Shown one piece after another: positions 923-35,372 of a stretch of DNA of 64,000 nucleotides; the first letter of the stretch is position 1; the number at the start of each line of letters is the position of its first letter. The notes below the pieces were generated by a model. It saw only the letters and a program-made list of their open reading frames with translations. It had not been told where the DNA came from and did not search any database. The stretch covers positions 85,503-149,502 of the forward strand of contig CAWHCF010000010.1 of NCBI GenBank assembly GCA_963827655.1. The letters run 5' to 3'. This stretch comes from an uncultured Acidobacteriota bacterium (GTDB lineage Bacteria; Acidobacteriota; UBA6911). The position numbers and the translations under genes were made by a program.

Positions 923-2328
923 ATGAAAACTCGATTCTGGAGTCTTGTCCTCTTATTGTTTCCTCTCTTGCGCGGCCCAGGCGGGTGATCGACAAGCGGA
1001 GGACTGGCTGGCTGAAGGGAAAAAGCTCATCGCGGAAAGACGTTTCGCCGACGCAGTCGTTGCCTTCAAGCATCTGAAGCAAGCGGCTCCTGAGGATCCC
1101 CGGGCTTACTTTTTTTCCGGCATCGCGCTGGCCGAAGCGGGCCAGCTGAGCGCCGCCGCAGCCGAGTTAAACGAAGCGGTTCGCCTCGATCCCGCTCAGC
1201 CCGAATATGCCCTGTCCCAGGCGAACGTGCTGGTACGACTGGGCCAGAAAGCTCTCGCCGTAAAGGCTCTGGCCGTATTCGAGAATGAAGGATATGCCAG
1301 CCGGCTCACGGCAGCCGGGCTCTGGCTTCTTGCCGATATTCACTATCGCCTGGGCAAAAACCAGGAATCGCTGAGAGCCCTTCAACTATTAGCCAGTCGC
1401 AATCCGGAAGATTCCCGCATCGATTTCCACCGCGGCCAGATCTACAAGATCATGGGAAACCTCGATCTTGCGCAGGAAGCTTTCGCAAAGAGTATCAAGA
1501 ACTCGGCCGATAACCCCGCCGCGTATTTCGAGCTGGGCCGGATACTCGAGCAGCGCAACGATATGAACGCTGCCAAGAAAGCTCTACTGGAGGCAGTGAG
1601 ACAGGATGGAGACGAATCCCGAATACCTTCATGGGCTGGGGGCCGTGTGTCTGGCGCTGGGCGAGGTTGACGAGGCCATCGGGTACCTGGAACGGGCAGA
1701 GCCCTCGGGTGCCGCCTTTCCCAAGATCTACTACGCCCTGGGGCAAGCGTACCAGCGGAAAGGGGATCGAAACAAAGCCGCGAAATACCTTGCCAAGGTC
1801 CAAGAAACGAACCTCGCTCAGCGGAAGAAGGAAGTCCGGGATCACGGAGAGCTGACACTGATCACCCTGGGAGAGAAGCAGCTCGAACAGGGGAATACGG
1901 CTGAAGCGCGCGTCTTGTTCGAAGAGGTCCTCCAGGCAAATCCGGACAACTGGCATGCTCATGAATATCTGGCCCGGATGTTTCTTTCTTCCGGAGACCG
2001 GCCGCGCGCGCATCAACACCTGCTCAAGATGGAACAGATCGATTCGCACTCAGTCGAGGGAAATTATTTGATGGCTCTTTATTGCTATCAGAACGAGGAG
2101 TTTGCACGAGCAGCCGCCTACGCCGAGCGCGCCCGATCGGTTCAGCCGGGAAATGCCGAGGTTCGCAATTTGCTGGGGAACATTTACCTCAGGCTGGCAC
2201 AACCGGAAAAAGCCCTGGAAGAATATCGAGCTGCGGTGCGGCTGGCTCCGGCTCGTTCGGATTTCCGGGCGAATCTGGAGAACGCTGAGAAGCCAAAAGA
2301 GCCCCCAGCAACCAAACCGCAGAAGTAG
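923..2328 (+). CDS. Secreted tetratricopeptide (TPR) repeat protein; reading frame broken twice (ORF fragments 945..1670 and 1606..2328, signal peptide in a third frame from ATG 923)
   Basis: Both tracked ORFs consist of TPR-like A/L/Y-rich helical repeats. Their 65-nt overlap joins as ...EAVRQD|PNNPEYLHGLGAV..., a textbook TPR junction. ATG 923 encodes MKTRFWSLVLLLFPLL, which stops after 21 codons but continues as AAQAGD... in the frame of ORF 945. Confidence 0.55.
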
Positions 2329-2691: not shown

Positions 2692-2997
2692 GTGGATCAG
2701 TCAGGGCCACCGTCGGAGATGAGCACGACAGTGAGATTTAAGTACAGGTTCCGACACCAGCCAGATCAAAAGGAATCTTCGGAAGCGCCACCCGACAAAT
2801 CGATCTATCACAAAATCCGTGAACTTTACGGTGTCGCGGAGGAGCTCTATCGCAGCCTCGGAGGAGGGAAGCGAGTCCTTGGTGAAGAGCGCGAGGGCTT
2901 CTTCGGTAACGCCACGGGGTCCGATTCTTCGAGCCGAGACCGGGATGAGTCTCATTTACTGGGATTCTGGTCCTGGTGGTATTTGTTTCCCACCTGA
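2692..2997 (+). CDS. hypothetical small protein (may be a second half of the 2421 ORF if another frameshift is present)
   Basis: 101-codon ORF beginning 20 nt after the preceding ORF. No recognisable family. Confidence 0.2.
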   Translation: MDQSGPPSEMSTTVRFKYRFRHQPDQKESSEAPPDKSIYHKIRELYGVAEELYRSLGGGKRVLGEEREGFFGNATGSDSSSRDRDESHLLGFWSWWYLFPT

Positions 2998-2998
2998 A

Positions 2999-4834
2999 CT
3001 ATTTGATCGAGACATCGTCCACGTAGTACGTAACGGGCACGACCGGGTCATCGGCGCCTGCTAGATCTCCCCCGGAATAGCGGTCCGTTTTTCGGGTCGG
3101 CTCGGTGCGAAACTCGCCGGTGCGAAACGAGAGTCGTTCAACACTGGCCGCCGGTTCGGCAAATGCGGCCTGGCGGATGACCAGCTTCCCGTTGATCGAG
3201 AGGTCATAATTACCTATCGCGTTGACCGAGATCTCGAAGCGATACCAGGAGCCGGCCTTGTAAAGGCCGGCCTCAGCACGGCTGTTTCCATCCAGCGCTC
3301 GCACGTGGCCGTCCTCACCGAAGGCGAGTCGTACCGGCCGGTGGCCCGCCTCGTCCAGAACTTCGATTTCCAGGCGGCCGCGGTCTGACTGCCGCGCGAA
3401 GACTCTGAATGCAAGACGCACTGTTTTCGCCTCGGCAAACACTCGCACGGCCTTGGCGTAGTCATAAGGGTCCCGATCCTCGAGCTGAAGACTCTTGTTA
3501 GCGGCGCTGGGAAAGGCGACGACGGCGGTTCGTGCCCAGCGTGGGTGATGGATGTTCCAGTCCGGAATCCGGCCGCCCACGTCGAGCTTGTCGAACGAAT
3601 CTTCCACCGGGCCTTCGATCTTATGCCGGATCGGCACGGGGATGCGGCTCACCCAAATGTCCTCCTTGTTGCTGCTATAGGTCAGCCACAAGTCGTTGCC
3701 GGGGGGATCGCCATTACCCTCGGATATGCCGCGCACATATTGCAATCCGAAGTCCTTGGCTCGCCCGAAGAAGCGGCGGGGCGCAACGTCGCCGTTGACG
3801 AGCAGCATGTTCTCGAACACGATGCCGTCGTTGCCGGTCGCCACGGCAAGCGGCCAGCGATGCGAGCCGAAGTCGGCTGGATTGTAAACGATGGCATAAC
3901 GGCCATCGTCGGTCCGCTGCCCCCAGGTCTTTGCCCCATCGGTGACGATGCTCGGCACGCGGACGGGAGTGCTCCAGGATTTGCCTTCGTCCGCGGAGAG
4001 CGCGGCCCATGATGCCTTAAACAGGGCGACCGCCATCCCGTCCTTGCGATGATAGACGGACGGCGCCTGACGCACCTGGCCGGGGACGGTGTAGAAACCA
4101 TCGGTGCTGCGATCCTCTTCATGCCATTGCATCGTCTTCAGCTTGTCGGCGAGCAACGCATTACAGGCATCGAGAAAACCCTTGTCGTTCGAGCGCGTGT
4201 AGAACGGAAACGTGGGCGTGTTGCTCTCGTTTCGATCGGCAAGACTGTTGTAGCGCAGAAAATAGATCGGCCCGTAAGAACCGTCTTTGTTCGCTTCCCG
4301 CACCACACGTCCGATGCCCGTGGCGCCCCATGGGGTCGGCGCATGACCATAAAAGGCGAGGACCAGGAGCCTCCCGTTGGGAGCGACATAGAAGCCCATG
4401 CGCTGATGCATCATCGCCATGCCCGATTCGTTGCCCGAAATGGGCCCCGGCCGCAGAAGATAAATGGGAAATACCTGTTTGGGCATGTCCCAATTGCGCC
4501 CGTCGCTGGAGGTGGCGACGAGGGTCTGGCCAGGCGGAAGATGCTCCCCGAAAGGGTTGCTCAAGTATTGAAGGTAGAACTTATCGTGCCAGTACGCGAG
4601 CATCGGCGCGTGACTGTAGGTCCAGCCGTAGCCATCGGCCATTTCCGGATGAGTGCGATTGGCACGCATAACCTGGATGTTTTCGACGCCGACTGCCGGC
4701 CGGAGACGACCGTCATGGACGTCCAGGTCGATGGCGCCGGCCAACACGCGCACGGGCTCATCAGGACCGCCCGGCTGGGTGGAAAAAGTGGACGCCAGAA
4801 TCGAGCAGAGCAAGACAAGGGTGGTGTTCTTCAT
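2999..4834 (-). CDS. Secreted BNR/Asp-box repeat glycoside-hydrolase-like protein (sialidase-like beta-propeller) with a C-terminal concanavalin/LamG-like lectin domain
   Basis: 611 aa with an N-terminal signal peptide (MKNTTLVLLCSILAST). Asp-box motifs SSDGRNWD and SADEGKSWS are present, and a C-terminal beta-sandwich-like region is predicted. Confidence 0.55.
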   Translation of the reverse strand: MKNTTLVLLCSILASTFSTQPGGPDEPVRVLAGAIDLDVHDGRLRPAVGVENIQVMRANRTHPEMADGYGWTYSHAPMLAYWHDKFYLQYLSNPFGEHLPPGQTLVATSSDGRNWDMPKQVFPIYLLRPGPISGNESGMAMMHQRMGFYVAPNGRLLVLAFYGHAPTPWGATGIGRVVREANKDGSYGPIYFLRYNSLADRNESNTPTFPFYTRSNDKGFLDACNALLADKLKTMQWHEEDRSTDGFYTVPGQVRQAPSVYHRKDGMAVALFKASWAALSADEGKSWSTPVRVPSIVTDGAKTWGQRTDDGRYAIVYNPADFGSHRWPLAVATGNDGIVFENMLLVNGDVAPRRFFGRAKDFGLQYVRGISEGNGDPPGNDLWLTYSSNKEDIWVSRIPVPIRHKIEGPVEDSFDKLDVGGRIPDWNIHHPRWARTAVVAFPSAANKSLQLEDRDPYDYAKAVRVFAEAKTVRLAFRVFARQSDRGRLEIEVLDEAGHRPVRLAFGEDGHVRALDGNSRAEAGLYKAGSWYRFEISVNAIGNYDLSINGKLVIRQAAFAEPAASVERLSFRTGEFRTEPTRKTDRYSGGDLAGADDPVVPVTYYVDDVSIK

Positions 4835-5081: not shown

Positions 5082-7133
5082 TTACTTGACGAACTCTACG
5101 TAACCCCGCCTTTCCAGAAATCGAAAGTAACCGAGGAAATCGAAGTCCGACGGACCGAGTTCAAGGCGCGTCAACCGGGCCACTTCGGCGAGATTTCGCT
5201 GACCGTCGCACCAGTACAGCGCCCGGATGGGCACGGCAGCCCAGGCGCCCGAGGGGTAACCTTCGCGCTGGTCCGGCGGCAGCTCGTCGAGTGGAATTGT
5301 CCCGAGTCTCTTTCGCCTGACCACAATCCGCGCCGCTTCGGCTTGTTGTGGATCCTGCGGCGGTGGAATCGGTTTGATAGCCGTGGGAAGGCCGAGCTGT
5401 GCCGCTCTCCTCTGGAGCGCTGCCTCGAGTCGCTTCAGCTGATCCCGGCCGAACTGGTCGAGCCGTTCCACCATGGACTCGATCCAGGGCCGGGCTTTTT
5501 CGCGGCGCGTTTCCGGCGCCAGGCGCAAAACCGAGCGGACCGCCTGGTTTTCGCGCGCCACGCAATAGTCAATCCGTTCTTTACCCTCATGAAAGAGCCG
5601 GCCCAGCCGCTCCGTGCCCTCTGCAGTCGAAACCGAGTCGAGAATTGACGTCACGGCGCTGACGACCTGCTCCTGGCCCCGGCTCAACGCGGCTTCGCCC
5701 AGCCAGGAAGCCTCGCGTTCGGAGGCTGTCGCCAGGTAGTAAAGATAGGCTGCGCTTACTATGGTCAGGTCGCGCAGCGAGCGAGGGTCGACCGTTTCCG
5801 GCCTGTCTTCGCTATTGTGATGAGTATGGATTCCCGTGCCGCTGTAGGGCCATACGGTCGGAATCCCAATGGTCGGTTCTCCCAGAAAAGAATCGGTGCC
5901 GCTCCTGTACTCCTTCCAGTGCCAGGGCCGGGGCGGCGAAAGCCGGGAAAAATAACTTTCGGCGACTCGCAGGATAAAAGCATCCACGTAAGACTTCGCC
6001 GCATGTGGATTCATGTGAAAGGTGTATTCCGTCCCGGCCAGTCCGTAGGACGCGGCAGGGGTGTCCAGACACAAGGCGGCTACGGTGCGGCGAACCCGGT
6101 CCGGGTTGGTGGCCAGGTAATGCATCGACCCATACATTTCCCCCATCGCCAGCATGCGGATGTGACGTCGCGGTCTGGGCAGTCGCCCGTCACCGATCAA
6201 CCGATTCAAGCTCCCCAGCGCCTCGAGCATCGCCGCCACGCCAGTGGCATTATCGTGCGCGCCTTGTTCGGACGTATGCCCCAGGACAAGCACCTCTTCG
6301 TTCTCGTCCCCGGATCCGGGAATGATCCCGGTGACGTAGGGATAGGTTCCGGAGTAGTAGCGGCTCTCGACGACGGCTCTCACCCTCACCTTGCGCGGCT
6401 CACGCAGCAGCTTTCGTAGAAACTCGGCCTGAGACGGAGAAATGGAGAAGCAGAGCAGCGGTGAGTTACCTTTGTTGAACGCCCAACCGTTGTCACCCCA
6501 GGCGTTGATCCATTGCCGGCCGTCTTTGAGATCCTGATTTTCCGTGAACGCGTTGATGGCCCCCGGCGACCCCTTCCTGGCAAGCAGCCACTTGATGTCT
6601 GCCGGATTTCGCGGCGTGAGAACGATTTTACCCTTCAGATCCAGAGCTTCGATGCTCTTGACCGACATGTCTTTCAACTCGACCACCTCTGCGGTGATCC
6701 CCCCTTCGGGAGTGGGACCACTCCACATGCCGAGCGAAGCGGGAACTTTCTCGTAGTCGGCCAGCACGCGGAATCCTTCCGGAACAGCCGGCTCGACGAT
6801 CTCCAGGCGCGCCTTCTTGACGTCCCAGGCGAGCGGCATGGTCCAGTAGCCGAACTGGCTCACCCCATCTGCAGGAGGAGCGACTACTTCTGCATCACGC
6901 AGGCCAATCTGGTTCATCGTCCGCTTGAGATGTTCCGCAGTTTCCTGAAACTTCGGAAACGTAAACCACCGGTCGGTCTGATAGATCTGTTGCATGTACT
7001 GCATGGCGCGCTCCGGGCTTACCTCGGAGCCGATCTGGCGCATCAAGGGTTCGAGCTGGCCCTGAGCCATCAAAGGAACGGCTACGAGGATCCATATCAA
7101 CGCCGGCAATGTTCGAGCTGATGAACCTTTCAT
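5082..7133 (-). CDS. M28-family metallopeptidase with PA domain and C-terminal DUF4910-like domain, secreted
   Basis: Carries the HxD...D...EE...H metal-ligand pattern typical of M28 (GHTSEQGAHDNATG, LAMGEMYGS). A signal peptide begins at MKGSSARTLPALIWILVAVPLMAQG. The tracked ORF extends 24 codons further upstream to 7205, probably not translated. Confidence 0.65.
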   Translation of the reverse strand: MKGSSARTLPALIWILVAVPLMAQGQLEPLMRQIGSEVSPERAMQYMQQIYQTDRWFTFPKFQETAEHLKRTMNQIGLRDAEVVAPPADGVSQFGYWTMPLAWDVKKARLEIVEPAVPEGFRVLADYEKVPASLGMWSGPTPEGGITAEVVELKDMSVKSIEALDLKGKIVLTPRNPADIKWLLARKGSPGAINAFTENQDLKDGRQWINAWGDNGWAFNKGNSPLLCFSISPSQAEFLRKLLREPRKVRVRAVVESRYYSGTYPYVTGIIPGSGDENEEVLVLGHTSEQGAHDNATGVAAMLEALGSLNRLIGDGRLPRPRRHIRMLAMGEMYGSMHYLATNPDRVRRTVAALCLDTPAASYGLAGTEYTFHMNPHAAKSYVDAFILRVAESYFSRLSPPRPWHWKEYRSGTDSFLGEPTIGIPTVWPYSGTGIHTHHNSEDRPETVDPRSLRDLTIVSAAYLYYLATASEREASWLGEAALSRGQEQVVSAVTSILDSVSTAEGTERLGRLFHEGKERIDYCVARENQAVRSVLRLAPETRREKARPWIESMVERLDQFGRDQLKRLEAALQRRAAQLGLPTAIKPIPPPQDPQQAEAARIVVRRKRLGTIPLDELPPDQREGYPSGAWAAVPIRALYWCDGQRNLAEVARLTRLELGPSDFDFLGYFRFLERRGYVEFVK

Positions 7134-7152
7134 GGCCACCCCGTTGTTTTGG

Positions 7153-7201
7153 TTGGCGTTTCTTCGCGTCTTCGAGTCTTCGAGGTATGATGAAACGCCA
7201 A
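7153..7201. repeat. Hairpin (10-bp arms TTGGCGTTTC/GAAACGCCAA) whose loop carries the TCTTCGCGTCTTCG motif shared with the elements flanking the TBDR tandem array
   Basis: A perfect inverted repeat read directly from the sequence. The motif tcttcgcgtcttcg recurs at 11051 and 14805. Confidence 0.5.
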
Positions 7202-7408
7202 GCATCTTAGCACCCTTTTTTTTACTTGAACTGATTGTTGCCGCAAGTTACTGTTTTGCATCAACCAACCCTGGCTGATCGGTACGGTGGCGAAGGGTCC
7301 AAAAGCCGCCCAATGTCGAGCTACGTTCGAGAAGGTAGAGTTATCTCGTATCCAAGGCCCGTCAACTTCCCTGGGTCCGGATGCCATCCTTATCATGCTG
7401 GAGGAAGA

Positions 7409-10400
7409 ATGCGAAAGTCGAAGAGCACGAACAAAGCAACGCCAGAATAGCCATCTTTTTTCTTGCCGCTCTTATCACGCTGGCCCTGGCCGCACCGCCT
7501 GGATTAGCGCAGACGGGCACGGGAACGGTCCAGGGAAGGATCCTGGACGCCAACCGCGCGGTGATTCCAGGGGCCGATATCACAATCACAAATCAGGATA
7601 CAAATATCTCACGCAAGACGGTTGCTTCCGGAGACGGGAATTACGCTATTGGCGCCCTTCCGCCGGGCCCTTACACGCTGGCCGTGGAGGTGCCGGGATT
7701 CAAGAAATGGACGGGCAAGCTGGTGCTGGAGGTCGGCCAGACGGCGGTCGTGGATGCCGTCATGCAGGTCGGCGACATCGCCACCGAAGTTGAAGTCGTC
7801 GGCGCCGCCCCGCCCATCACGCTCGAGAGCGCGGAAGTGTCGGATGTGAAGGATGCGGTCCGCATTCGACAGTTGCCGCTCAACGGCCGGGCCATCAGCA
7901 ATCTGTTTGACTTGACCCCCGGAGTCGAGGGGGGCGGCAACCCGAGGGTCAACGGCCTCAAGGTCGGGTCGGTGGAAATGACGATCGACGGGATCTCCCT
8001 CGTGGATCGGTTTGGCGGCGGCATCGCCCGCGTCCAACCTGGATTGGACACAATCCAGGAATTCCGGATTGAGACGACCGGATCCGATGCCCAATTCTCG
8101 CGCCCTGCGACTGTCACGCTGGTAACCAAGAGTGGAACCAATGCCTTTCACGGCAGCGTTTTCGAGACCCACCGCAACAATGCAGCCGGCTTGCGCGCTC
8201 GCCGCCGTGAGGATGGAAACACATCATCCAAGCTGATTCGCAACGAATTTGGAGCCTCGGCCGGCGGTCCGGTGTATCTCGGAAACTGGTACAACGGCCG
8301 CGACAAGACGTTCTGGTTTGCCGCTTATGAGGGGCTGCGAAACCGCCAGTCCAGATTCGTCGATAGCGTCGTACCGACAGCGGCCATGTGGGCGGGCGAC
8401 TTCAGCGGCATCGTCGACATAAACGGCGTCCAAACTCACATCTACGATCCATTGACTACCGACGCCCGGGGTTTGCGCCAGCAGTTTCCCAATGACATCA
8501 TTCCCGGCAACAGGATTCATCCCTTCTACAAACAGATGCAGGCGCTGACGGCCTTGCCCACCAGCACGGTGAATCCATTCCAGGGGAACAACTTCCAGAA
8601 GTTTTATCCGGACAATCTGGATACCAACACCTTCACCGTGCGCGGCGACCACAAGTTTTCCGACCAGGATAATCTATCGGCAAGATTTTCGCGCAGCCGG
8701 CGCCTGTCGCAAGTCTTCGGAGGTGTCTTCGGCAATCCGGTCGACACCCTGGAAAATGGATTCGGAACCGGCCGGTCGGATACCAAGGTCTACAGCACGT
8801 CGATCCGTGAAACCCACGTTTTCTCACCCACCTTCCTGAGCGAATTGCTCGTAGCCGGCCATCGCTCGAATCAGGGTTCCGGGACCCTCGCGGACTTCAC
8901 CGATTGGCCCAAAGAGCTGGGGTTGCCGAACCCGTTCAACGTTCAAGGTTGGCCGACTCTGGGCGCCGGAATCTTTGCCTGGGATTCCGACAACCGTCAT
9001 GACCAGAAGCTGACCGCCTACGTGGTTGAAGAAAACCTGAGCTGGCTCAAGGGCAAGCACTCGCTGAAGTTTGGCGGGAAGGTCCGTTACGAATACAATA
9101 ACGTCCGGGAACTGCAACAGGCTCAGGGCTCGCATACCTTTGGCAACGCCTGGACCGCGCTGTACGATCCGGTCGGAGACCAGACGGCTTCTTTCACCGG
9201 CGACGGCCTGGCCGCAATGGCCCTGGGGGTCCCGACTTTCCTGTCCAATCAATATAACCGGGGCTACTTCTACTTCGAGCAGCAAGAGATCGGCCTTTAC
9301 TTCCATGACAGCTGGAAGGCTCATCCGCGCCTGACGCTGGATCTGGGGGTCCGCTGGGACAAGTGGACGGCATACGAAGAGAAGTACAACCGGCTGGTGA
9401 ATGTCGATCTCAACAACTTCGCCAACCAATTTCAGGTCGTCACGCCCAAGGACGTGAGGATGGAAGACCTGCCCGGCATTCCATCGTCGGTGCTTCAGTC
9501 CTATGCCGTGCGCGGACTGACCTGGACGACCGCGCGGAATGCGGGTTTGCCGGACAATCTGGTCAAGGGAGACAACAACAATTTCGCCCCCCGCATCGGC
9601 GCGGCATTCCGGATCACCGACAAAACCGTCTTGCGCGGCGGGTATGGAGAGTATTTCTGGACCATGCCGCTGGCGCAGATCCTGCAGACCTCGAGAACCA
9701 ACCCCCCGCTCAACCTGAGATTCACGAACCAACTCGGATCCTTGGACGGCACTTCCACCTTTGGGGTTCGAACCACGCCGAGACCGGAATTCTTCGTCGG
9801 GACTGCAACGGTTGATACCGAGGGCATCGTCTTCATCCCTCCGAATGCCCATTGGGATGATGCCCTGGGCCGCTGACGATTGGAAAGATGGCCGCGCCCA
9901 GGCGTGGCACCTTACTCTGGAGCGCGAAGTGATGCGCAATACGGCCCTTCGCTTGAGCTACATCGGCGATCATGGCCGGGATATGGAGCAGCGATTCGCT
10001 CTCAACAACCAGGAGGCGGAATACAATTACGTGGCACGGACCGGACAGAACCCTCCCGCCAACCGCGCGTTCATGCGGGTTAACCCGAACTGGAACTTCT
10101 CAGCCGCCAACCGTACCGGATTCTCCAATACGCATTCGGCGCAGGTGGAGGTCGAGCGCAAGTATTCCACCGGCCTGGCATTCCAGTTCTTCTACACCTT
10201 CACCCGATCCCTGACCACTTCGGACGCCGGTGGCTTCACCAGCGGTAATGGCGGACATAAACGCCACCGATGGCCAGTTTCAGGTACCGGAGAACATCCA
10301 GCTTCTCGGCGGCAACTCCAATCTCAGCTACGATCAAAGGCTCCGTCTCGGTTATTACAACAACACCAACATCCCCCCGCATAGGATCCGTTACAACGGA

Positions 10401-11037
10401 ATCTATGACCTTCCCTTTGGCCGGGGGAAGCAGTTCGGTGGAGATGTCGCTCGCGGCTGGGACACCCTGATCGGCGGCTGGCAGATTGCCGCGATCGGGG
10501 ACTGGCGTGGCGGCCTGTGGAGAAGTGTTGGCAGCGGGCTCTACTGGTTCGGAGATCCTACGCTCGCATCCCGATGCAGCAACTGGAGATGACCATTTTC
10601 GGCCGGCATCAGCGGCTGTGGTTCCGTGGAGATTTCGATCCGCGCCAGGCCACGAATGTCTCGCAGGAGGCCTTGCAGGCTCTGGTGCCGGTAAACCGTG
10701 CCGAAAGAGTTCTGCGCCCGCTGGGAGCAGCCTTCGACAACCGGCTGCCGCAGACTCTGTCAAACGGCGCCGTCCGGCAAACTCCCATCACCGACACGGT
10801 GAATCCCAAACCCAAGGGCGTTCTACATCGGTCCGCGGCAGCTGGAATGTCGACCTCGCGCTATTCAAGAACTTCAACATCACCGAGAGAGTAAACGCTC
10901 GCTTCTCGGCCGACTTCTTCAACTTCTTCAATCATCCGGTCGACGTCGCGCCCAATACCACCACAGGTCTGCAAGACTTGAGTGTCCAGGCCAACGAGCC
11001 TCGGATCATTCAGTTCTCGCTTCGTTTGGACTGGTAG
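7409..11037 (+). pseudogene. TonB-dependent receptor (CarboxypepD_reg-like N-domain + plug + 22-strand barrel), copy 1 of a tandem pair, disrupted by about 5 frameshifts (ORF fragments 7381..9876, 9761..10384, 10230..10592, 10517..10894, 10486..11037)
   Basis: The fragments are collinear with the intact-looking copy 2 at roughly 85% amino-acid identity. A strong RBS GGAGGAAG precedes ATG 7409 (MRKSKSTNKAT, matching copy 2's MKNSKSNNRAS), but the frame is lost after 13 codons at a CCC/CC run. The C-terminal ...IIQFSLRLDW is identical to copy 2. Confidence 0.7.
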
Positions 11038-11050
11038 ATCCTTCTTTGAG

Positions 11051-11106
11051 TCTTCGCGTCTTCGTGGTTAGTGCATGAAAACAAGCGCACCACGAAGACG
11101 CGAAGA
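11051..11106. repeat. Conserved 18-bp-stem hairpin (TCTTCGCGTCTTCGTGGT ... ACCACGAAGACGCGAAGA, 20-nt loop) immediately 3' of TBDR copy 1
   Basis: Perfect inverted repeat. A near-identical element lies after copy 2 at 14805..14860. No T-run follows on the + strand, so it is not a canonical intrinsic terminator. Confidence 0.6.
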
Positions 11107-11169
11107 AAAACCAAAACCGTCAACTTCCCCCTGGGTTCCGGATGCGTGGCTGATTATCCTGGAGAACGT

Positions 11170-14100
11170 ATGAAAAATTCGAAGAGTAACAACCGGGCAA
11201 GCGCCCGAATTGCCGTCTTTATTCTTGCTGGCCTTATCACGCTGGCCCTGGCCGCACAGCCTGGATGGGCGCAGACGGGAACGGGAACGGTTAAAGGAAC
11301 GGTACTGGACTCAAACCGTGCCATAGTCCCTGGAGCCGACATTACCATCACGAACGAGGAGACAAACATCTCGCGCAAGGCGATCAGCGCCGCCGAGGGG
11401 ACTTACTCCATAGGCGCCCTGTCTCCGGCCCCCTACGTGCTGGTGGTCGAGGCGCCGGGATTCAAGAAATGGTCGGGCAAGCTGGTGCTCGAGGTCGGTC
11501 AGACGGCGGTAGTCGACGCCGTTCTCCAGATCGGCGATATCTCCACCACCGTCGAGGTGGTCGGCGCCGCGCCGGTCATCACGACTCAGAGCGCAGAGAT
11601 CTCAGATGTCAAAGACGCCCAGCGCATCCGGCAGCTGCCGCTCAACGGCCGCGCCATCAGCAGCCTGTTTGACTTGACTCCCGGGGTCGAGGGCGGAGGA
11701 AACCCCCGGGTCAACGGTCTCAAGGTTGGTTCGGTCGAGATGTTGATGGACGGCATTTCGCTTGTGGATCGATTCGGCGGCGGCATCGCCCGGGTGCAGC
11801 CGGGGCTGGATACGATCCAGGAATTCCGGATCGAGACGGTCGGATCTAACGCCCAATACTCGCGGCCGGCCTCGATTACGCTGGTAACCAAGAGCGGAAC
11901 CAATAACTTTCACGGCAGTGCTTTCGAGACCCACCGGAACAACGCGGCCGGTCTGAGGTCGCGCCGCCGGCAAGACGGAGACACATCGTCCAAATTGATT
12001 CGGAATGAGTTCGGGGTCTCGGCCGGCGGGCCGGTTTATCTGGGTAGCTGGTACAACGGGCGCGACAAGAGCTTCTGGTTTGCCGCCTACGAGGGCCTGA
12101 GAAATCGCCAGGATAGTTTCGTCCAGAGTATTGTGCCGACAGCGGCCCTGTGGGCGGGTGACTTCAGCGGCATCGTCGACGCCAACGGCGACCGGACTCA
12201 CATCTACGATCCATTGACGACGGACGCGCGGGGTCTGCGCCAGCAATTTACTAATGACGTCATTCCCAGCACCAGAATCCACCCCTTCTACAAGACGATG
12301 CAGTCTCTCACCGCTCTGCCCACGAATACCGTGAATCCATATCAGGGAAACAACTTTGAGAAATTTTATCCAGACGTCCTCGACGTCAACACATTAACCC
12401 TGCGAGGCGACCACAAGTTCTCAGACAAGGATAACCTGACGGGAAGGTTCTCGCGCAGCGAGCGTCTCGCGCGCGTATTCGGAGGGGTTTTCGGCAATCC
12501 TCTGGAAACCCTCGACAATGGATTCGGCACCAGCCGGTCGGACGCCACGGTTTACAACACGTCGATCCGCGAGACCCACATCTTCTCTCCGAATTTTTTG
12601 AACGAGCTGCTACTGGCCGGACACCGCTCCAACAAGAGCTCCGGGACTCTGGCCGATTTCACCGACTGGGCCCAGGATCTGGGATTGCCCAACCCGTTTG
12701 CCACCCAGGGATGGCCCACCATGTACGCGGGCGATTTCCCCTGGGATGGAGACAATCGCAAGGACGAGATGCTTACGGCCTACGTCGTCGAGGACAACCT
12801 GAGCTGGGTCAAGGGCAAGCACTCGATGAAGTTCGGCGCCAGGGGCCGTTACGAATACAACAACGTGCGCGAATTACAGCAGGCTCAGGGCTCACACGAT
12901 TTTGGCGGCAGCTGGACGGCTTTGTATGACCCCGTCGGCGATCAGGCGGTTTCGTTCACGGGTGACGGCCTGGCCGGGATGGCTCTCGGGCTTCCCACCT
13001 ACTTGTCCAACCAGTATAACCGGGGCTATTTCTACTTCCAGCAGCAGGAGTTCGGCCTCTACTTCCATGATAGCTGGAAGGTCTCTCCCCGGCTGTCCCT
13101 GGAGCTGGGAGTTCGCTGGGACAAATGGACCGCGTACGACGAGAAGTACAACCGTCTGGTGAACGTGGATCTCGACAACTTTGCCAACAAGTTCGAGGTC
13201 ATCACGCCGAAGGATGTCCGCATGGAGGAGCTCTCAGGGAATCCCGCCGTCGGTGCTTGACTCCTGGGCGGCGCGAGGTCTCACATGGAGGACCGCGCGG
13301 GATGCGGGTTTGCCTGATAATCTGATCACGGGAGACAACAACAATTTTGCCCCGCGTATCGGTGCCGCTTTCAGGATCACCAACAAGACCGTCTTGCGCG
13401 GCGGGTATGGCGAGTACTTCTGGACCATGCCCCTTTCCCAGATCCTGCAGACATCGAGAACCAACCCTCCGCTCAACCTGAGATTCGAGAATCCACTCGA
13501 TGTTCTGGACGGAACCGACACTTTCGGTGTCCGAACCAGGCCCGGGTCGGAATTCTTCATCGGAAACGCCACGGTCGACACCGCGGGCATCGTTTCAATC
13601 CCCCCGGGGGCCCAATCGGTAATGCCATGGGACGCTCGCAACTGGAAAGACGGCCGCGCCCAGTCGTGGCACGTCAGCCTGGAACGCGAAGTGATGGGCG
13701 ATACCGCTCTTCGGCTGAGCTACATCGGCGATCACGGGAGGGATCTGGAACAGCGCTACGCGCTCAACAACCGGGAGGCAGAATTCAACTACGTGGCGCG
13801 CACCGGACAGAATCCTCCAGGCAACCGGGACTTGATGCGCGTCAATCCGAACTGGAACTTTGCGGCCGCCAATCGCACCGGATATTCCAATACGCATTCG
13901 GCGCAGGTTGAGATCGAGCGCAAATATTCCGCCGGCGTGGCCTTCCAGTTGTTCTACACCTTCACGCGATCCCTTACCACCACGGACGCCGGCGGGTTTA
14001 CCAGCGGCAATGGCGCCATAAACGCCACCGATGGCCAGTTTCAGGTGCCGGAGAACATCCAGCTTCTGGGCAATCCCAATCTCAGCTATGACGAGAGGCT

Positions 14101-14791
14101 TCGCCTCGGATACTACAACTCGACCAACATTCCCCCGCATCGGATCCGCTATAACGGGATCTTCGACCTCCCGTTCGGCCGGGGAAAACACTTCGGTGGG
14201 GATGTCTCACGCGGCTGGGACACCCTGATCGGCGGCTGGCAGATTGCCACTATCGGTGATTGGCGCAGCGGCCTGTGGAGGAGTGTTGGCAGCGGCCTCT
14301 ACTGGTTTGGCGATCCCACGCTCGCGGCCGATGAGCGCCTGGAGATGACCATTTTCGGCCGGCATCAGCGGCTGTGGTTCCGGGGAGATTTCGATCCGCG
14401 CCAGGCCACGAATGTCTCGCAGGACGCCTTGCAGGCTCTGGTGCCGGTAAACCGTGCCGAAAGAGTCCTGCGCCCGCTGGGAACGGCTTTCGACAACCGG
14501 CTACCGCAGACCCTGGCAAACGGCACCGTTCGGCAGACTCCCATCACCGACACCGTGAATCCGAACCCGAGGGCATTCTACCTCGGTCCGGGCAGCTGGA
14601 ATGTAGACCTCTCGCTGTTCAAAAACTTCAGCATCACAGAGAGGGTGAAGGCTCGATTCACGGCCGACTTCTTCAACTTCTTCAATCATCCGATCGACGG
14701 CGCGCCCAGTACAACCACGGGTCTGCAAGACTTGAGCGTCCAGGCCAACGAGCCTCGGATCATTCAGTTCTCGCTTCGTTTGGACTGGTAG
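11170..14791 (+). CDS. TonB-dependent receptor (CarboxypepD_reg-like N-domain + plug + barrel), copy 2, with one apparent frameshift near 13200-13260 (fragments 11071..13260 and 13181..14791)
   Basis: RBS GGAGAA is followed by ATG 11170 and a signal peptide (MKNSKSNNRASARIAVFILAGLITLALAAQPGWAQ). The two fragments join across ...PKDVRMEEL|...GIPPSVLDSWAARGLTW, collinear with copy 1. The GTG at 11071 used by the ORF track lies inside the upstream hairpin loop. Confidence 0.7.
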
Positions 14792-14804
14792 ACGATTCTT
14801 TGAG

Positions 14805-14860
14805 TCTTCGCGTCTTCGTGGTCAGCGCGTGAAAACAAGCGCACCACGAAGACGCGAAGA
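14805..14860. repeat. Conserved 18-bp-stem hairpin 3' of TBDR copy 2 (second copy of the 11051 element)
   Basis: Arms are identical to 11051..11106, and the loop differs at only a few positions. Confidence 0.6.
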
Positions 14861-14900
14861 AAGAACCCTTTCGTTAAGCTCGGTTTCGTTGGGCGGTCGC

Positions 14901-15293
14901 TCAGGCCGGCGTCCTTAGAGGAACCAACTGGGAGATCTCAACGGAGTTTGAGCCGCGCATGGCATGCCAGAGATCCCAGTCCGATTGCAGGCCGAGCCAG
15001 AAGTCCGCTGACATCCCCAGCACGCGCGCCAGCCGAAGTGCCGTGTCGGGCGTCACCGCCCGTTTTCCCCGGATGATCTCGTTCAGCCGCGGAAACGAAA
15101 CTCCCAGTCGTAACGCCAACTCCGACTGCGTAATTCCAAGAGGCTTGACAAACTCCTCGAGCAGCATCTCGCCGGGATGAGTAGGCGGACGGCGACGAGG
15201 CAGGCGGCGACGGATGAGCTCACCTGACCTGACTTGCTTCCCTGTTGTGGTACGACTCTTAGTGGTAGTCCGTGATCTCGACTTCGTAGGCAT
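14901..15293 (-). CDS. higA: HigA-family antitoxin (XRE-type HTH)
   Basis: The motif ...HPGEMLLEEFVKPLGITQSELALRLGVSFPRLNEIIRGKRAVTPDTALRLARVLGMSADFWLGLQSDWDL is the canonical HigA/VapI HTH_XRE signature. It lies immediately downstream of HigB. The tracked ORF extends 29 codons upstream to 15380; a start at the MPTKSRS methionine is more likely. Confidence 0.75.
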   Translation of the reverse strand: MPTKSRSRTTTKSRTTTGKQVRSGELIRRRLPRRRPPTHPGEMLLEEFVKPLGITQSELALRLGVSFPRLNEIIRGKRAVTPDTALRLARVLGMSADFWLGLQSDWDLWHAMRGSNSVEISQLVPLRTPA

Positions 15294-15552
15294 CTCCCGC
15301 CTCCCACCGAAAACAAAGGCGATACTGATTGTTGATCCTGATGCTGTGCTGCCCGCTACGGCCGCCGCGCAGTCCTTCAAGACGATTCCCCGCGGGAACG
15401 GCGAGTTCGAAGAGATCCTTCACGCGATTCACCTGATCCAGCTTCCTCTGAGCCACCTGCCATAAATCGCGCGGGCAGGCCCGTCGAGCTGCGGCGGTGT
15501 CAGCGCCATCAAAGATATCCGCGGTACCTCGGCCCCGGAAAGACCGTATCAC
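15259..15552 (-). CDS. higB: HigB-family toxin (RelE/ParE superfamily mRNA interferase)
   Basis: 97 aa beginning (GTG)IRSFRGRGTADIF and ending ...EAGDAYEVEITDYH, the HigB plasmid-maintenance-killer pattern. Toxin-first order with a downstream HigA is characteristic of higBA. Confidence 0.7.
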   Translation of the reverse strand: MIRSFRGRGTADIFDGADTAAARRACPRDLWQVAQRKLDQVNRVKDLFELAVPAGNRLEGLRGGRSGQHSIRINNQYRLCFRWEAGDAYEVEITDYH

Positions 15553-15559
15553 GGCTTAC

Positions 15560-15588
15560 ATTATAACGGGTGCCGGTATAACGCTCAA
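15560..15588 (-). promoter_or_regulatory. Putative sigma70-type promoter (TTGAGC - 17 nt - TATAAT) ending 8 nt upstream of the higB GTG, implying a leaderless or very short-leader transcript; contains direct GTTATA repeats (candidate HigA operator)
   Basis: Reverse complement of 15560..15588 reads TTGAGCGTTATACCGGCACCCGTTATAAT. No Shine-Dalgarno sequence lies between it and the start codon. Confidence 0.4.
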
Positions 15589-15733
15589 CGTCTTGGACGC
15601 GGCCACACCCTCGATCAGCCTGCGTCCCCTGGCCGGTACGTACACCTCGCCTGCCGACCAGCACGCACCGTTGTGGTCGCGCAAATGAGAAGCCGTCAGT
15701 CGGAACATATCACCCGAGCCGGTGGCGCCGCGT

Positions 15734-16474
15734 TTAATCGGCAGGGACGCGATACCAGTATCGGTACAACTCGCGAAAACCGAGTTTTTCATAGAGACGG
15801 CGCGCCGGGATGTTGGTTTCGACGACCTGGAGGTACGCGTGCTTGGCTCCGCGCTCTTGAGCCCAGTTCAGCATCGCCGTGACAAGCGCGGCGCCATGTC
15901 CGTGCTTACGGCGCGTGGGAGCGGTTACCAGATCAAAGAGCCCGAAGCAGTCCTGGCCCAGCACTCCTAATCCGATTGCGGCAACCTCCGTCCCTTCCGG
16001 CAACGATGCCAGGAGCCTCCCCCCAGGAATCCTCTGCAGCATTGTCTCATGGGTAAATTGCTGATCGCGCGCCACGCCATGGAAGCGACAGTAGAGATCC
16101 AGCCAGGTGTCAAGCGGCTCTTCCTTCAGTCGACGCGAGAGAGGTTGCAAGGTGTGCGCACTCTCCAGATCGAGCTGGAGCACCAGAGAGGGATCGACGA
16201 CTCTGTAGCCCCGGTCGGCGAGAACCTGGTCCAGCCTCCCAGGAGCCGTGATCGAGTTCAGCCTGAAGATGCAGGGCTGTTGCCGGGCACGATACAGTTC
16301 TTCGCATCGCTGAACATGCTCTTCCAGCGGCACAGCCGAGGGGTAAAGCGGATTGACCGAGTTCGCTCGTTTCGTGTAACCGCGGCTGAAGCGGATGAGC
16401 CAGCCGTCCAGCAGGACCTGCTCCAGCGCCGGCCATGCGTTCAATGACGCTTCTTCAATGCGCAGCGCGATCAT
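15734..16474 (-). CDS. GNAT-family N-acetyltransferase
   Basis: 246 aa. A C-terminal acetyl-CoA-binding-like core (LFDLVTAPTRRKHGHGAALVTAMLNWAQERGAKHAYLQVVETNIPARRLYEKLGF) matches the GNAT motif A/B region. Confidence 0.65.
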   Translation of the reverse strand: MIALRIEEASLNAWPALEQVLLDGWLIRFSRGYTKRANSVNPLYPSAVPLEEHVQRCEELYRARQQPCIFRLNSITAPGRLDQVLADRGYRVVDPSLVLQLDLESAHTLQPLSRRLKEEPLDTWLDLYCRFHGVARDQQFTHETMLQRIPGGRLLASLPEGTEVAAIGLGVLGQDCFGLFDLVTAPTRRKHGHGAALVTAMLNWAQERGAKHAYLQVVETNIPARRLYEKLGFRELYRYWYRVPAD

Positions 16475-16722
16475 GTGTGAGTCTGAATTGGATCAAGCAT
16501 TGAGCCGCTACCGGAGCGAGCGGGTTTTGCGAGGGGTAACCAGAGCCTGGCATGCAGATCTGTGACGCAGCGACAACCTGGAATCCGGCGGGGCGCTGCA
16601 CGCGCGTTAACCGGCTCTCTTTGAACCGCGTCTCTTATTCTTCCCTTGTCGAGCGTCAAGCCATTTCTTTAGCGATAGAGGACTCTCTCCTGATTGCCGG
16701 CCAGCCAGCAAGCCCGCGACTG

Positions 16723-16938
16723 TTAAATCTTCGTCCAGGTCCGGCCAATGGATGTAGCGCCGTCTCCGGCAATTTCATAATGATTCCGCTCTTGTGGAGT
16801 ACCATGCCAAAGGCGAGGAAACCAAACCAAAGGCACGATTATTGTCCGGCCATCCACCAGATCAACGGTTAAGGCGTCCTCGCTCATCGTCACGGATTGA
16901 GCTCGCGCTTCCTGTATCTCAACGGCCAAAGAATTCAT
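16723..16938 (-). CDS. DUF2442-family small protein
   Basis: 71 aa containing LTVDLVDGRTIIVPLVWFPRLWHGTPQERNHYEIAGDG, the DUF2442 signature. No DUF4160 partner was found. Confidence 0.55.
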   Translation of the reverse strand: MNSLAVEIQEARAQSVTMSEDALTVDLVDGRTIIVPLVWFPRLWHGTPQERNHYEIAGDGATSIGRTWTKI

Positions 16939-16959
16939 ACCAACTCCTAAGTAATCGCT

Positions 16960-17125
16960 GGTTAAGGATTTATAGATTCTATGCTCCCTGACTGGGCCGC
17001 CGGAGCATTGAAGGCAGCGTCCAGCGCCCCTCCGGGGCGCGTCTCTTTCGTGTCTGTGACCGGGGGCAGGCGCTCCGCTGGCCCCCGGCTAATTTCCTTC
17101 GCCCTTTCAGGGCGCGAGCTGGCGT
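16960..17125. repeat. Copy 3 (partial) of a dispersed ~200 bp non-coding repeat family (see 39880 and 43795)
   Basis: The segment ggatttatagat...ggagcattgaaggcagcgtccagcgcccctc...gggcgcgtctctttcg...ggctaatttccttcgccctttcagggcg aligns to 43850..44010 with high identity. Confidence 0.55.
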
Positions 17126-17142
17126 AACCACTCGTTCAGACC

Positions 17143-18016
17143 TCAGCGTTTCAGCGTCGTACCGATGTAGGCTTTCACCACGTCGACGACATATTCCTGA
17201 CAGGCTTCACCGGTTCTGGCGTCATAGGACCCGCCGTTGGTGATGTTGTTGGACAAAACCCGGATACCGAGAAACGGGATCTGGAAGAAGCCGGCAATCT
17301 GCGCCGCCGACGCGGTTTCCATTTCCTCGACCGAGGTGCCGTATTGACTGCGGAGCCGGTCGTATCCGATCGACTTCGCTGTTCCAGATCTCGCCGGATC
17401 CAATCACGCCTTCCACCACGCGTCCTTTCCGATAGAGATGCTTCACGCTGTTGGCGGCGGCGAGCAGTTGTTCGTTCGCCTCGAAGCGCCGCATGGTGCG
17501 CGCGTTCGGGTCTTCGCCGGCGCTACCCTCCGATGCCATCAGGTCCATCGGTTTCCATTCCAGAAAATCGCTGCCTTGCCCAGGCTTCCGGTAACCGGTT
17601 TTGAACGCCCCCAGATTGACGGAGTGCTTGCCCAGCACGATGTCGTAGACGTGTAACTCCGGGTCATGGCCGCCCGCGGTTCCCTGGTTGACGATCGCCA
17701 CTGGACGATAGCGTTCAGCAGCGATCGCCGTCGCTGCCGCGGAGTTCGACACGCCCTTCATGGTCTTGGAAACCACCACCGGGTAGCCGTCCAGCGTGCC
17801 GCGCCAGAATGTCCAGCCGGCGATTTTCTCCACGCTGACGTTGTCCAGACCGCCGGCAATTTTTTCCGTCTCTACGGGCATCGCGCCCTGTACGAGCACG
17901 GGACGCAACACCGGCATTCTACTGTCTGACGATCGAGTGATCCGGTCCGGGGCTCCGCACCCGCCCAGCAGCAGGTGGATCAACAGTGCCACGCTCATGA
18001 TGGATGCTTTTCTCAT
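17143..18016 (-). CDS. Periplasmic lipoprotein of the purine nucleoside phosphorylase / MTA-SAH nucleosidase (PNP_UDP_1) family, with an apparent frameshift near 17390 (fragments 17222..18088 and 17143..17403)
   Basis: Starts MRKASIMSVALLIHLLLGGCG (lipobox) and is preceded by RBS GGAGAG. Family motifs VNQGTAGG and SGEIWNSE are present, and the C-terminal piece ...FLGIRVLSNNITNGG continues in another frame. Confidence 0.6.
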
Positions 18017-18313
18017 CTGAGTCTCTCCGGAGGTTGCGGCAATTTCACCGCGCCCCGTTTCTGGCAGCGGGAAGACGCTGCCGCTCAAATCTTCGCGAAC
18101 TGGCCGGCGAGCGCGGTGAGGTCTGCCCGCGTCCAGCGACGATGCTTAACGAAGAATCGACCCAAGGTTCGCAAACCGTTGCCAATGAAGAAGCCGACAA
18201 CTGAGTATAATGCCACCCGGGGGATCTAAACATTCTCGTGAGTGGAACGTCAGCGATTCGGGACCGCTCCGAGTAGATCGCGCGGCAAAGCCGGAAAGAA
18301 ACTGCGAGACACC

Positions 18314-28770: not shown

Positions 28771-28828
28771 GCGTGGTCCCATAAGTTGGATTGAGAACCG
28801 TCGCAAGTCGTCAAAAAGTAGAAAGTTG

Positions 28829-28875
28829 AAAGTGCTGAGTCCAAAGGCTTTCAACTCAGCACTCAGCACTTTTTA
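28829..28875. terminator. Rho-independent-like terminator hairpin between convergent genes (12-bp stem AAAGTGCTGAGT/ACTCAGCACTTT followed by TTTTT)
   Basis: A perfect inverted repeat with a T-run on the + strand, read directly from the sequence. It sits between the beta-helix gene and the minus-strand carboxylesterase. Confidence 0.6.
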
Positions 28876-28900
28876 CTCTAATGTTACACCCTGTGAAGAT

Positions 28901-33776: not shown

Positions 33777-34007
33777 CCCGGAGTGACCCATCATAGCAAA
33801 GCGGCTGTGTACGATCTTCAACCTGATATCCGACTGTATGATAACGAGCGCGTCTCGGCGCGACTGTCATCAAGAACCTCTCTGGGCGCGGCACAGGCTG
33901 GAGCAGTGGTAATCGGATTTGACGTAATGAGTCACATGTCTGGCTAAGGGTGCGGCGGAAGAACGCGTGGGAGCAGGTCACGGCCGCCGGGGCCGGTCTC
34001 CCGCCCT

Positions 34008-35370
34008 TCAGGCCGGCGGCGTTAACCTCTTTACTTCGCCGACAAGCTCGGCGACCGGCTCTCCCGTGGTGTCGTTCACGGAATTGGCAATTTTCACGGG
34101 CCGGCCGATCGGGTGCATGTACTCCTTGTGCCAATCGATGCCGAATGCCTTGTACACCGTGGCGAACAGGTCCCCGATGGTCGTCCTGCGGCCGTCGGCG
34201 AGGTAGGCGCCGCGCTCGTCGCTCTTGCCAATGACCTGTCCTCCGCGGATCCCGCCTCCTCCTATCGCGAGCGACCAGCAGTGAGACCAGTGATCGCGCC
34301 CGGCCGCCGGATTCAGGAAGGGCGTGCGGCCGAACTCGCCCATGGCGAGCACGATCGTCGACTCGAGGAGCCCCCGGGCCTCGAGATCGTCGAGCAGCGT
34401 CGAAAGCGCCTGATCGAGCTGCGGCACGAGTTCGTCGCGGTGCTTCTTGTTGTTGTCGCCATGCGTGTCCCAGGCGTTGAACGGATATCCCGCGGCCGTG
34501 ACGAAGCGGCTTCCGGCCTCGACCAGCCGGCGCGCCAGAAGCACGCTCTGGCCGAAGCCGTTGCGTCCGTACTGCATCCCGAACCTTGTCCGGCTCCTCG
34601 GCGATGTCGAACGCCTTCCTGACCTCGGGGGCGAGGATCATCGCGCGCGCCTGGTCGGTGAAGGCGTCCGTCGGGCTCTGTTCGGCGGCCTGGACCCGCT
34701 CACGGTAGAGGCGATCGACGATCCTGAGGAACCCGCGCCGGTCCTCGAGCCGTTCGACGGTGATGGACTTCGGCAGAACCAGGTCGGGTGGCCGGAAGTC
34801 CTTCGCGCTGGGATCCGGAATCACCAGCGGATCGCACTCTGCCCCGAGAAAGGCCGCCCGGAATGATTCCTCATACTGCCGCTGGCTCTCCCACTGCGGC
34901 GCCAGGACGTGCGGAGGCACGGCTCCCCGCGCGCCCAGTTCCTTGGTGATCACCGCCCCGAAACTCGGGAATTCCATGGCCGGATTGGGGCGGTGGCCCG
35001 TAAGGGCATAGTAGGTAGCCTGGGGATGATTGTTCTCTTCCGTGTACATCGAACGGATCAGCGCCAGCTTGTCCATACGCCGCGCGACACGCGGCATCAG
35101 CTCGGACACCTGAATGCCTGGTACGTTGGTCGAGATCGGGTGGAACGGGCTGCCCGGCTTCGGATCCCACGTGTCCATCTGGCTGGGACCACCCTCCAGC
35201 CACAGAAGGATACAGGCCTGCGCCTTCCCGCCAGGGGAGCCCAAAGCGTGCCGCAATTGAAGGTACTGGCCCAGGCTGATTCCGAGAAACCCAAGCGAGC
35301 CGACACGCAGGAAGTCGCGCCGGCCCAGGCTTTCTGTAGTGCAGTGGAGACATCCAGTTTGCATCGACAT
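34008..35370 (-). CDS. DUF1501-family protein (sulfatase-like fold) with Tat signal; apparent frameshift near 34570 (fragments 33589..35415 N-part and 34008..34577)
   Basis: Tat motif RRDFLRVGSLGFLG. The DUF1501 core is present (ACILLWLEGGPSQMDTWDPKP ... then YGRNGFGQSVLLARRLVEAGSRFV...DTHGDN). The two pieces join at ..KVRDA|YGRNGFGQ. The long 608-codon tracked ORF downstream of the break is out of frame. Confidence 0.65.
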
Positions 35371-35372
35371 CC

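Follow-up and report, generated by a model that had tools for sequence, protein, structure and literature searches.

Is a receptor gene whose reading frame breaks again and again a decaying paralogue, or is its deposited sequence at fault? The question is raised by a locus within a 64,000-nt stretch of DNA (hereafter the window) from an uncultured Acidobacteriota bacterium of the lineage UBA6911 (assembly GCA_963827655.1, contig CAWHCF010000010.1, positions 85,503-149,502), in which two genes resembling TonB-dependent receptors (TBDRs), here called copy 1 and copy 2, are each followed by a palindrome that can fold into a hairpin. An earlier, sequence-only reading had taken copy 1 for a genuinely decaying paralogue and the hairpin for an element linked to TBDR genes. 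Taken whole, the locus is in our judgement quite probably best explained by an old tandem duplication with two functional copies, by frame breaks that are consensus errors, and by a hairpin resembling the repetitive extragenic palindromic (REP) elements.

Nucleotide alignment of the two genes over their whole length (81.3% identity, eight gap events; coordinates in the table) mapped the indels and showed that the breaks exist in the deposited sequence. Each of the eight frame breaks is an indel of a single nucleotide, an insertion in seven cases and a deletion in one; seven of the breaks fall in copy 1 and a single one in copy 2, so that the asymmetry proposed before (at least five breaks versus one) is in the sequence. 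Copy 1 is also longer than copy 2 by an in-frame 3 nt at 10307. The first break, described earlier as CCC shortened to CC, is instead the loss of a C or T from AAC[C/T]GCC (codon ACC or ACT in relatives), and an in-frame ATG at 7381 gets round it.

Read at face value, such breaks would make copy 1, and more recently copy 2, a genuine strain-specific pseudogene, redundant beside its paralogue. They stand in the deposited record and in that record's own gene calls (fragments of 831, 114, 696 and 525 aa on a 298,541-nt contig, with the same breaks), and they are about ten times denser in copy 1 (seven in 3.6 kb, six of these inside 1 kb) than in the rest of the window (about one per 5-8 kb). Any annotation pipeline would score this asymmetry as a pseudogene, which calls for caution with metagenome-assembled genomes (MAGs). 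However, both copies are stop-free once the 1-nt indels are taken out, so that no nonsense codon remains, and the 7:1 ratio of insertions to deletions is opposite to the deletion bias of bacterial pseudogenes.

The break sites were compared with related assemblies, the intact ones being described as of the same species: L058 (ENA ERZ25039531, a 72.9-kb contig, 97.4% identical to the window in nucleotides and with the same gene order), L059 (JGI 3300081720, 97% identical, in which the tail of copy 1 is in frame and copy 2 is whole) and L001 (the sister ENA assembly ERZ25039541, with a single receptor copy). Every related assembly that covers a break site is whole there. In L058 both paralogues are complete (P0128, 1,207 aa, for copy 1 and P0139, 1,206 aa, for copy 2, with a hairpin after each) and the reading frame is unbroken at every break site of the window; L059 covers five of the sites, four at the 3' end of copy 1 and one in copy 2, all intact, and its copy-2 orthologue (P0130, 1,239 aa) is likewise intact. 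Copy-1 orthologues are whole in two other JGI samples (P0122, 1,204 aa; P0124, 1,202 aa), and P0060 (94.8% identity with copy 2) stays in frame across the copy-2 break site. On the other hand, one JGI contig has copy 2 split into 183 + 1,023 aa, so natural breakage of a paralogue may occur. Programmed frameshifting or phase variation at slippery runs is extremely improbable: some breaks do touch short runs (GG, GGG, CCC), but the runs are just 2-3 nt long, the seven sites lack a common motif and the relatives are in frame at all of them.

Nor does copy 1 bear the imprint of relaxed selection. The dN/dS between the two copies is 0.127, and between copy 1 and its L001 orthologue (98.5% identical) it is 0.14 over the first 800 codons, a stretch that lies entirely downstream of the break at codon 11; judged by these ratios, both copies are under purifying selection. 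Among the marks of a pseudogene, the disrupted frame is thus seen, while relaxed selection and lesions repeated in independent lineage data are not, and the claim of a genuinely decaying copy 1 gives way before intact orthologues of both copies, dN/dS of 0.13-0.14, and indels that are private and insertion-biased.

Where the indels fall points to their origin. Two natural alleles of copy 1 occur among the relatives, the L058 type and the L001/L059 type, the latter resembling copy 2, and six of the seven copy-1 indels lie exactly on sites where these alleles differ (binomial P for indels on bi-allelic sites 3.6e-6; 2.9e-4 when restricted to the 3' third). At these sites the window combines the alleles: CTCG-ATCCCGAT-CAACAA and CTCGCGGCCGATGAGCGC became CTCGCATCCCGATGCAGCAA (the haplotype strings at this site being …CTCGATCCCGATCAACAA… in the L058-like and …CTCGCGGCCGATGAGCGC… in the L059-like form), GCGC and GGGC became GCGGC, and AAC-CCA and AAT-CCC became AATCCCA; at 7441, where relatives are bi-allelic for C and T, both bases are absent. 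Indels that join both alleles of a polymorphic site argue for haplotype mixing rather than for raw-signal error. Mismatches too cluster around the indels (5-8 times enriched); they are not simply noisy consensus patches, as L058 and L059 show most of them to be real alternative alleles.

Consensus indels that cause frameshifts are known in long-read assemblies (PMC9262707; 10.1101/2021.08.23.457338). The window resembles such long-read or mixed-strain errors in that single-base indels split conserved genes, affect many genes and are absent from related assemblies; it differs in that most of its indels are not changes of homopolymer length but sit on bi-allelic single-nucleotide sites and carry both alleles. 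The assembly would have been built from a mix of close haplotypes, or from reads of either paralogue recruited to the other, and at sites where haplotypes differ the consensus may have kept both bases, so that 1 nt was gained, or left both out, so that a deletion arose. Because the relatives are intact, selection is purifying, the spectrum is insertion-biased, the indels fall on polymorphic sites and other genes of the window are split as well, the breaks in copy 1 and copy 2 are very probably consensus errors from mixed haplotypes, and a true pseudogene is improbable. Indels on bi-allelic sites that carry both alleles are a simple diagnostic, reference-free in appearance, that could find wide use on MAGs.

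The same class of error is seen in an independent sister assembly, L001, whose single receptor gene lacks one base at each of three sites that tell copy 1 and copy 2 apart, all within the same 100 nt, with 26 codons garbled. Its product P0001 is called intact at 1,206 aa, yet it holds a 26-residue out-of-frame patch (13399-13481, residues 1135-1160) between compensating deletions; a full-length gene call is no guarantee of a correct sequence. In L058, the gene of a type I restriction HsdR protein (2905-4689) is called as four small fragments. Split genes elsewhere in the window (table) point to an indel problem that is assembly-wide.

Why the breaks crowd in the last kb of copy 1 is suggested by the nature of this stretch: here the paralogues resemble each other most (85-93% identical over the last ~600 nt, against 70-83% elsewhere) and the strains appear to differ by gene-conversion tracts, so that more than one haplotype would feed the consensus. 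Between the copies dS is 0.77 overall, 0.97 in the 5' 800 codons and 0.49 in the 3' third; the duplication, going by a dS of ~0.8-1.0, is an old one, and its original join-point is accordingly unreadable. Both copies would be functional, their ends partly homogenised by gene conversion. The copy-2 leader of L058 is not homologous to the copy-1 leader, so the similarity of the leaders in the window's lineage reflects gene conversion. The copy-2 leader and signal-peptide region (11121-11260) is copy-1-like in the window and in L059, though not in L058 (13696-13830), which indicates a putative 5'-end conversion tract in part of the population besides those at the 3' end.

The receptor pair itself is ordinary for Acidobacteria. 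The two genes lie head to tail on the + strand, as the sequence-only reading had it, and their proteins are 82.6% identical across 1,207 residues after correction of the 1-nt indels, somewhat below the ~85% it gave. CarboxypepD_reg (PF13620) matched at residues 40-120 (E 2.5e-18 in corrected copy 2; 3.3e-20 in P0128, the intact copy-1 orthologue that stands in for copy 1 in the Pfam comparison) and OMP_b-brl_4 (PF25183) matched over its full length (1-838/838, E 9e-161). The TonB_dep_Rec_b-barrel domain (PF00593) is weak (26.9 bits in copy 2 against a cut-off of 27; 36.8 bits in P0128); no match to Plug (PF07715) was found at E<=0.01 in either of these proteins, residues 121-238 being plug-like by eye only (…RQLPLNGR…VDGISLVD…TLVTKSGTN). 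A database search returned 6,429 homologues, mostly of 1,170-1,250 aa and named, where the source gives a name, as TonB-dependent receptors of Acidobacteria/Bryobacterales; ~1,200 aa is thus the usual size in the family, and the epithet "giant" once applied to the pair is not warranted. The genes share with the acidobacterial CarboxypepD_reg receptors (PF13620 + PF25183 + PF00593) the domain order, the ~1,200-aa length, the signal peptide and the C-terminal aromatic residue, and they do not differ notably from these receptors, which number thousands in MAGs of Acidobacteriota/Bryobacterales. In L058, L059 and two JGI samples the genes likewise stand in tandem. Neighbouring genes for a BNR/sialidase-like protein, an M28 peptidase and an esterase give a hint of glycan or peptide uptake by the receptors.

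What, then, is the hairpin? Each of the two 56-nt hairpins begins 13 nt past a receptor stop codon, and folding confirmed what had been read from the letters, a 56-bp element after each copy with an 18-bp perfect stem (TCTTCGCGTCTTCGTGGT/ACCACGAAGACGCGAAGA) and a near-identical 20-nt loop: the predicted RNAs reach free energies (dG) of -39 and -42 kcal/mol (z about -8; 0/200 shuffles as stable). The loops differ at 4 positions and form a short inner helix. Octamers in tandem make up the arms (TCTTTGAG-TCTTCGCG-TCTTCGTG), the third of them, TCTTTGAG at 11043, being degenerate. At <=2 mismatches the motif TCTTCGCGTCTTCG occurs nine times in the window, where 1.2 occurrences are expected; all but one of the nine lie in the three hairpin places of the locus. 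The hairpin is kept after both copies in all assemblies, one inner pair varying between U-G, U-A and C-G.

Strong GC-containing stems so close behind stop codons could be intrinsic terminators of two independently transcribed genes, and other long hairpins of the window also lie at gene ends (e.g., 58835-58890, between convergent genes). Against this, neither hairpin is followed by a U-tract on the + strand (the tails being AAAAACCAAAACC and AAGAACCCTTTCG), a terminator scan marked neither of them on that strand, the 63 nt from hairpin 1 to the copy-2 ATG showed no promoter-like site, and 6 of 40 classified family members in other genomes lie in divergent promoter regions, all of which makes terminators unlikely. 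Since just those 63 nt intervene, copy 2 is likely co-transcribed with copy 1. On the mRNA, by analogy with REP elements, the hairpin would most likely serve as a 3' stem-loop that shields the upstream cistron and damps read-through.

Upstream of copy 1, the third hairpin that had been proposed proved to be a relic: an element does exist there, but it is weaker than the other two (dG -30, z -4.4), its octamers TCTTCGCG/TCTTCGAG/TCTTCGAG at 7161-7184 match the left arm without a matching right arm, and its outer stem (GGCGTTTC/GAAACGCC) is unrelated to the hairpin family. L058 reads TCTTCGAGTCTTCGTGGT at this position, which differs in a single base from the left arm that the full hairpins have. 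The open reading frame of the neighbouring M28 peptidase (5082-7205, - strand, 707 aa) probably starts at an internal ATG near 7133, giving MKGSSARTLPALIWILVAVPLMAQG, a signal peptide, and the relic would therefore lie in a divergent intergenic region and not inside the gene; in L001 this gene is called with 561 aa, owing to a 1-nt difference at window 6787.

By the alignment, the repeated unit spans 7362-11106 and 11121-14860 and comprises ~55 nt of leader, the receptor gene and the hairpin. Of the proposal that the repeat delimits this unit, one half holds, the hairpin being part of it; the upstream motif, on the other hand, lies ~160 nt outside the homology boundary at 7362. The hairpin may nevertheless have made the duplication, if a REP-like palindrome flanking a single gene recombined unequally and still mediates loss and gain of the unit. 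A left-arm relic before copy 1 and full hairpins after both copies would suit this history, and REP sequences at the join-points of tandem duplications have a precedent in Salmonella, reportedly described by Shyamala et al. in 1990, in a title whose phrases are cited in PMC8450116 and elsewhere. However, the relic is off the junction, the join-point is illegible at a dS of ~0.8-1.0, and the same product would come from ordinary homologous recombination between the 3' ends, which are 85-93% identical.

Strain variants bear on the same point. L001 equals the window minus exactly one unit, and its hairpin is chimeric, with hairpin-1 bases left of the loop and hairpin-2 bases and flank right of it; L059 keeps only the left arm of hairpin 2, fused to the end of the PNP gene, with window 14823-17142 missing; and L058 skips from 10 nt past hairpin 2 to the GNAT gene. 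L001 might pass for an allele that has cleanly lost one unit, but this reading is weakened by the last ~600 nt of its gene, a mosaic of the two copies in which 1-nt deletions fall where the copies can be told apart; the pattern also fits a collapsed repeat, so the one-unit allele may not exist. A hairpin-made duplication is, on balance, doubtful. The broader suggestion that the hairpin acts as a recombination substrate fares better, since L001, L058 and L059 all break in or beside hairpins, although this falls short of proof and L001 may be a collapse; that the DNA recombines or breaks at the hairpin is plausible. Long palindromes break at the apex, and SbcCD cleaves hairpin loops. On the DNA, the hairpin would most likely be a fragile, recombinogenic palindrome that starts strain-specific deletions and insertions. 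The window resembles REP-mediated duplication and palindrome-stimulated deletion in having a palindrome at the ends of tandem units and variants that break in its loop or at its foot; it differs in that its case is known from sequence alone, with one of the three variants possibly an assembly collapse.

The islet next to hairpin 2 varies among the assemblies: HTH_3 and GNAT in the window, GNAT only in L058, HTH only in L001, HTH_3 and DinB in JGI 3300041966; in L059 it is empty. On the left the islet always begins in the hairpin or <=10 nt away (L001 13696-14448; L058 17440-18392; L059 4420-4422).

Other genomes show what kind of element the hairpin is. One genome per prokaryotic species was scanned with the pattern TCTTCGCGTCTTCG-N20-40-CGAAGACGCGAAGA, which yielded 56 loci (L002-L057). 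The acidobacterial MAG gp18 AA62 holds at least 31 copies and MFD07386.bin.2.1 five; multi-copy, intergenic and independent of what its neighbours do, the family is REP-like in the broad sense. The gp18 AA62 hairpin has the same 18-bp stem as that of the window with a different loop, is the core of a dispersed element, ~110-140 nt long, whose flanks are conserved and which stands in either orientation, and varies in octamer number (two or three in one arm). Family copies are intergenic in tandem, convergent and divergent contexts, and only 2 of 57 adjoin a TBDR homologue; receptor homologues of 67-68% identity are followed by unrelated hairpins after their stops. The supposed link to TBDR genes thus dissolves into a palindrome dispersed beside unrelated genes, essentially the outcome that the sequence-only reading had itself named as speaking against it. 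On this distribution, the hairpin is a REP-like repeat, of a family with (TCTTCGYG)n arms, that the receptor unit happened to capture and that was duplicated within it; it is not a mark of TBDR genes.

The likeness to known REPs is partial. With the REP elements and bacterial interspersed mosaic elements (BIMEs) of Enterobacteria and Pseudomonas the family shares short intergenic palindromes in many dispersed copies, often just after genes. GTAG- and CGTC-tagged REPs are 20-40 bp long with 8-9-bp stems, 4-5-nt loops and a terminal tag (Di Nocera et al. 2013, PMC3733652), whereas the window element has 56 nt, an 18-bp stem of tandem octamers, a 20-nt loop and no terminal tag; membership among the CGTC-tagged REPs, considered because the octamer junctions read CGTC, was ruled out by these dimensions of stem and loop. 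According to the same paper, REPs are thought to be stabilisers or attenuators at RNA 3' ends and hot spots of recombination and insertion. No gene for a transposase of the REP-associated tyrosine transposase (RAYT) type was seen in the window. Rfam 15 gave no window match at the gathering threshold, and by E-value only sub-threshold look-alikes of microRNA precursors; the literature search found no paper on the octamer sequence, the viral contigs of IMG/VR no match to the hairpin, and scans of metagenome contigs came back empty both for the window-type hairpin with its loop and for the conserved 3' end of the receptor gene.

Palindromes with identical TCTTCGCG arms (2-4 copies per arm) also occur in Acidobacteriota, in isolates of Sphingomonadales and Caulobacterales, in Nostocales, in Planctomycetota, Gemmatimonadaceae and Thermoanaerobaculia, and in two Methanothrix MAGs (examples: L011 2226-2288, L043 6351-6412, L034 5130-5183, L009 7556-7607), and the top of their stem often reads CGCG-TGA…TCA-CGCG. 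The cross-phylum scan covered this one octamer. Identical 14-nt arms in Acidobacteriota, Sphingomonadales/Caulobacterales, Nostocales, Planctomycetota, Gemmatimonadota and Methanothrix may speak for an undescribed REP-like superfamily of octamer palindromes, (TCTTCGCG)n-loop-(CGCGAAGA)n, with a common mode of spread or maintenance, whose members would break at the apex and be hot spots for cassettes including the receptor unit; we put this forward as a tentative and rather unlikely proposal. For the identical arms in distant phyla, together with their position at strain breakpoints, the literature searched offered no explanation.

Several points weigh against the account given here: i) the case for consensus errors is indirect, being a comparison of assemblies; ii) a long-read assembler is no more than suggested by the "contig_N" names of the sister ENA assemblies; iii) the break density of copy 1 agrees with an error origin only if this region is especially rich in polymorphism or in cross-talk between the paralogues, which the allele data suggest, short of proof; iv) the break at 9854 lies in a patch unique to the window; v) the copy-2 break has no known second allele; vi) dispersal of the hairpin is seen in other genomes, the window itself holding only its own copies; and vii) transcription of the hairpin and its effects on mRNA and on recombination are inferred only.

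Table. Features of the receptor locus and of the rest of the window (window coordinates)
Feature	Position	Strand	Remarks
Copy 1, CarboxypepD_reg + OMP_b-brl_4 TonB-dependent-receptor-like gene	7409-11037	+	1,207 codons
Copy 2, paralogue of copy 1	11170-14791	+	1,206 codons
Leader of copy 1	7362-7408	+	ribosome-binding site GGAGG; homology to copy-2 leader begins at 7362
Leader of copy 2	11121-11169	+	ribosome-binding site GGAG
Copy-1 break, -1	7441		codon 11
Copy-1 breaks, +1 each	9854, 10253, 10567, 10576, 10804-10810, 10835		
Copy-2 break, +1	13234-13236		
Hairpin 1	11043-11112		stem 11051-11068 / 11089-11106, 18-bp perfect; loop TAGTGCATGAAAACAAGCGC
Hairpin 2	14797-14866		stem 14805-14822 / 14843-14860, same 18 bp; loop CAGCGCGTGAAAACAAGCGC
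Upstream relic element	7150-7204		between divergent M28 peptidase gene and copy 1
Variable islet beside hairpin 2	14870-17142		HTH_3 14901-15380 (-), GNAT 15734-16474 (-), half of a repeat resembling miniature inverted-repeat transposable elements (MITE-like) 16960-17114
TPR gene	945-2328	+	split, 241 + 240 aa; JGI relatives 459-465 aa
PNP_UDP_1	17146-18088	-	private 1-nt insertion at 17361
DUF1501	33589-35415	-	partial match
Third, distant TBDR-like gene	40282-43415	-	spread over three frames
Aminotran_5	46469-47735	+	split between two overlapping open reading frames

Two kinds of repeat beyond the hairpin family were observed. A GC-rich, MITE-like repeat of ~250 nt, its halves mutually reverse-complementary, occurs at 39894-40127 and 43763-44012 as well as in the islet, and in L001 (14358-14621) and L058 (18300-18544); copies stand on both sides of the third TBDR gene and one beside the PNP gene, and the repeat had no Rfam match. 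Furthermore, a hairpin at 63518-63578 has (TTGACGA)n/(TCGTCAA)n arms (dG -50 kcal/mol, z -10), that at 58835-58890 has a related TCGTCAA-type stem and that at 28817-28877 has (CTCAGCA)2 arms; palindromes with periodic arms seem to be general in the intergenic DNA of this organism.

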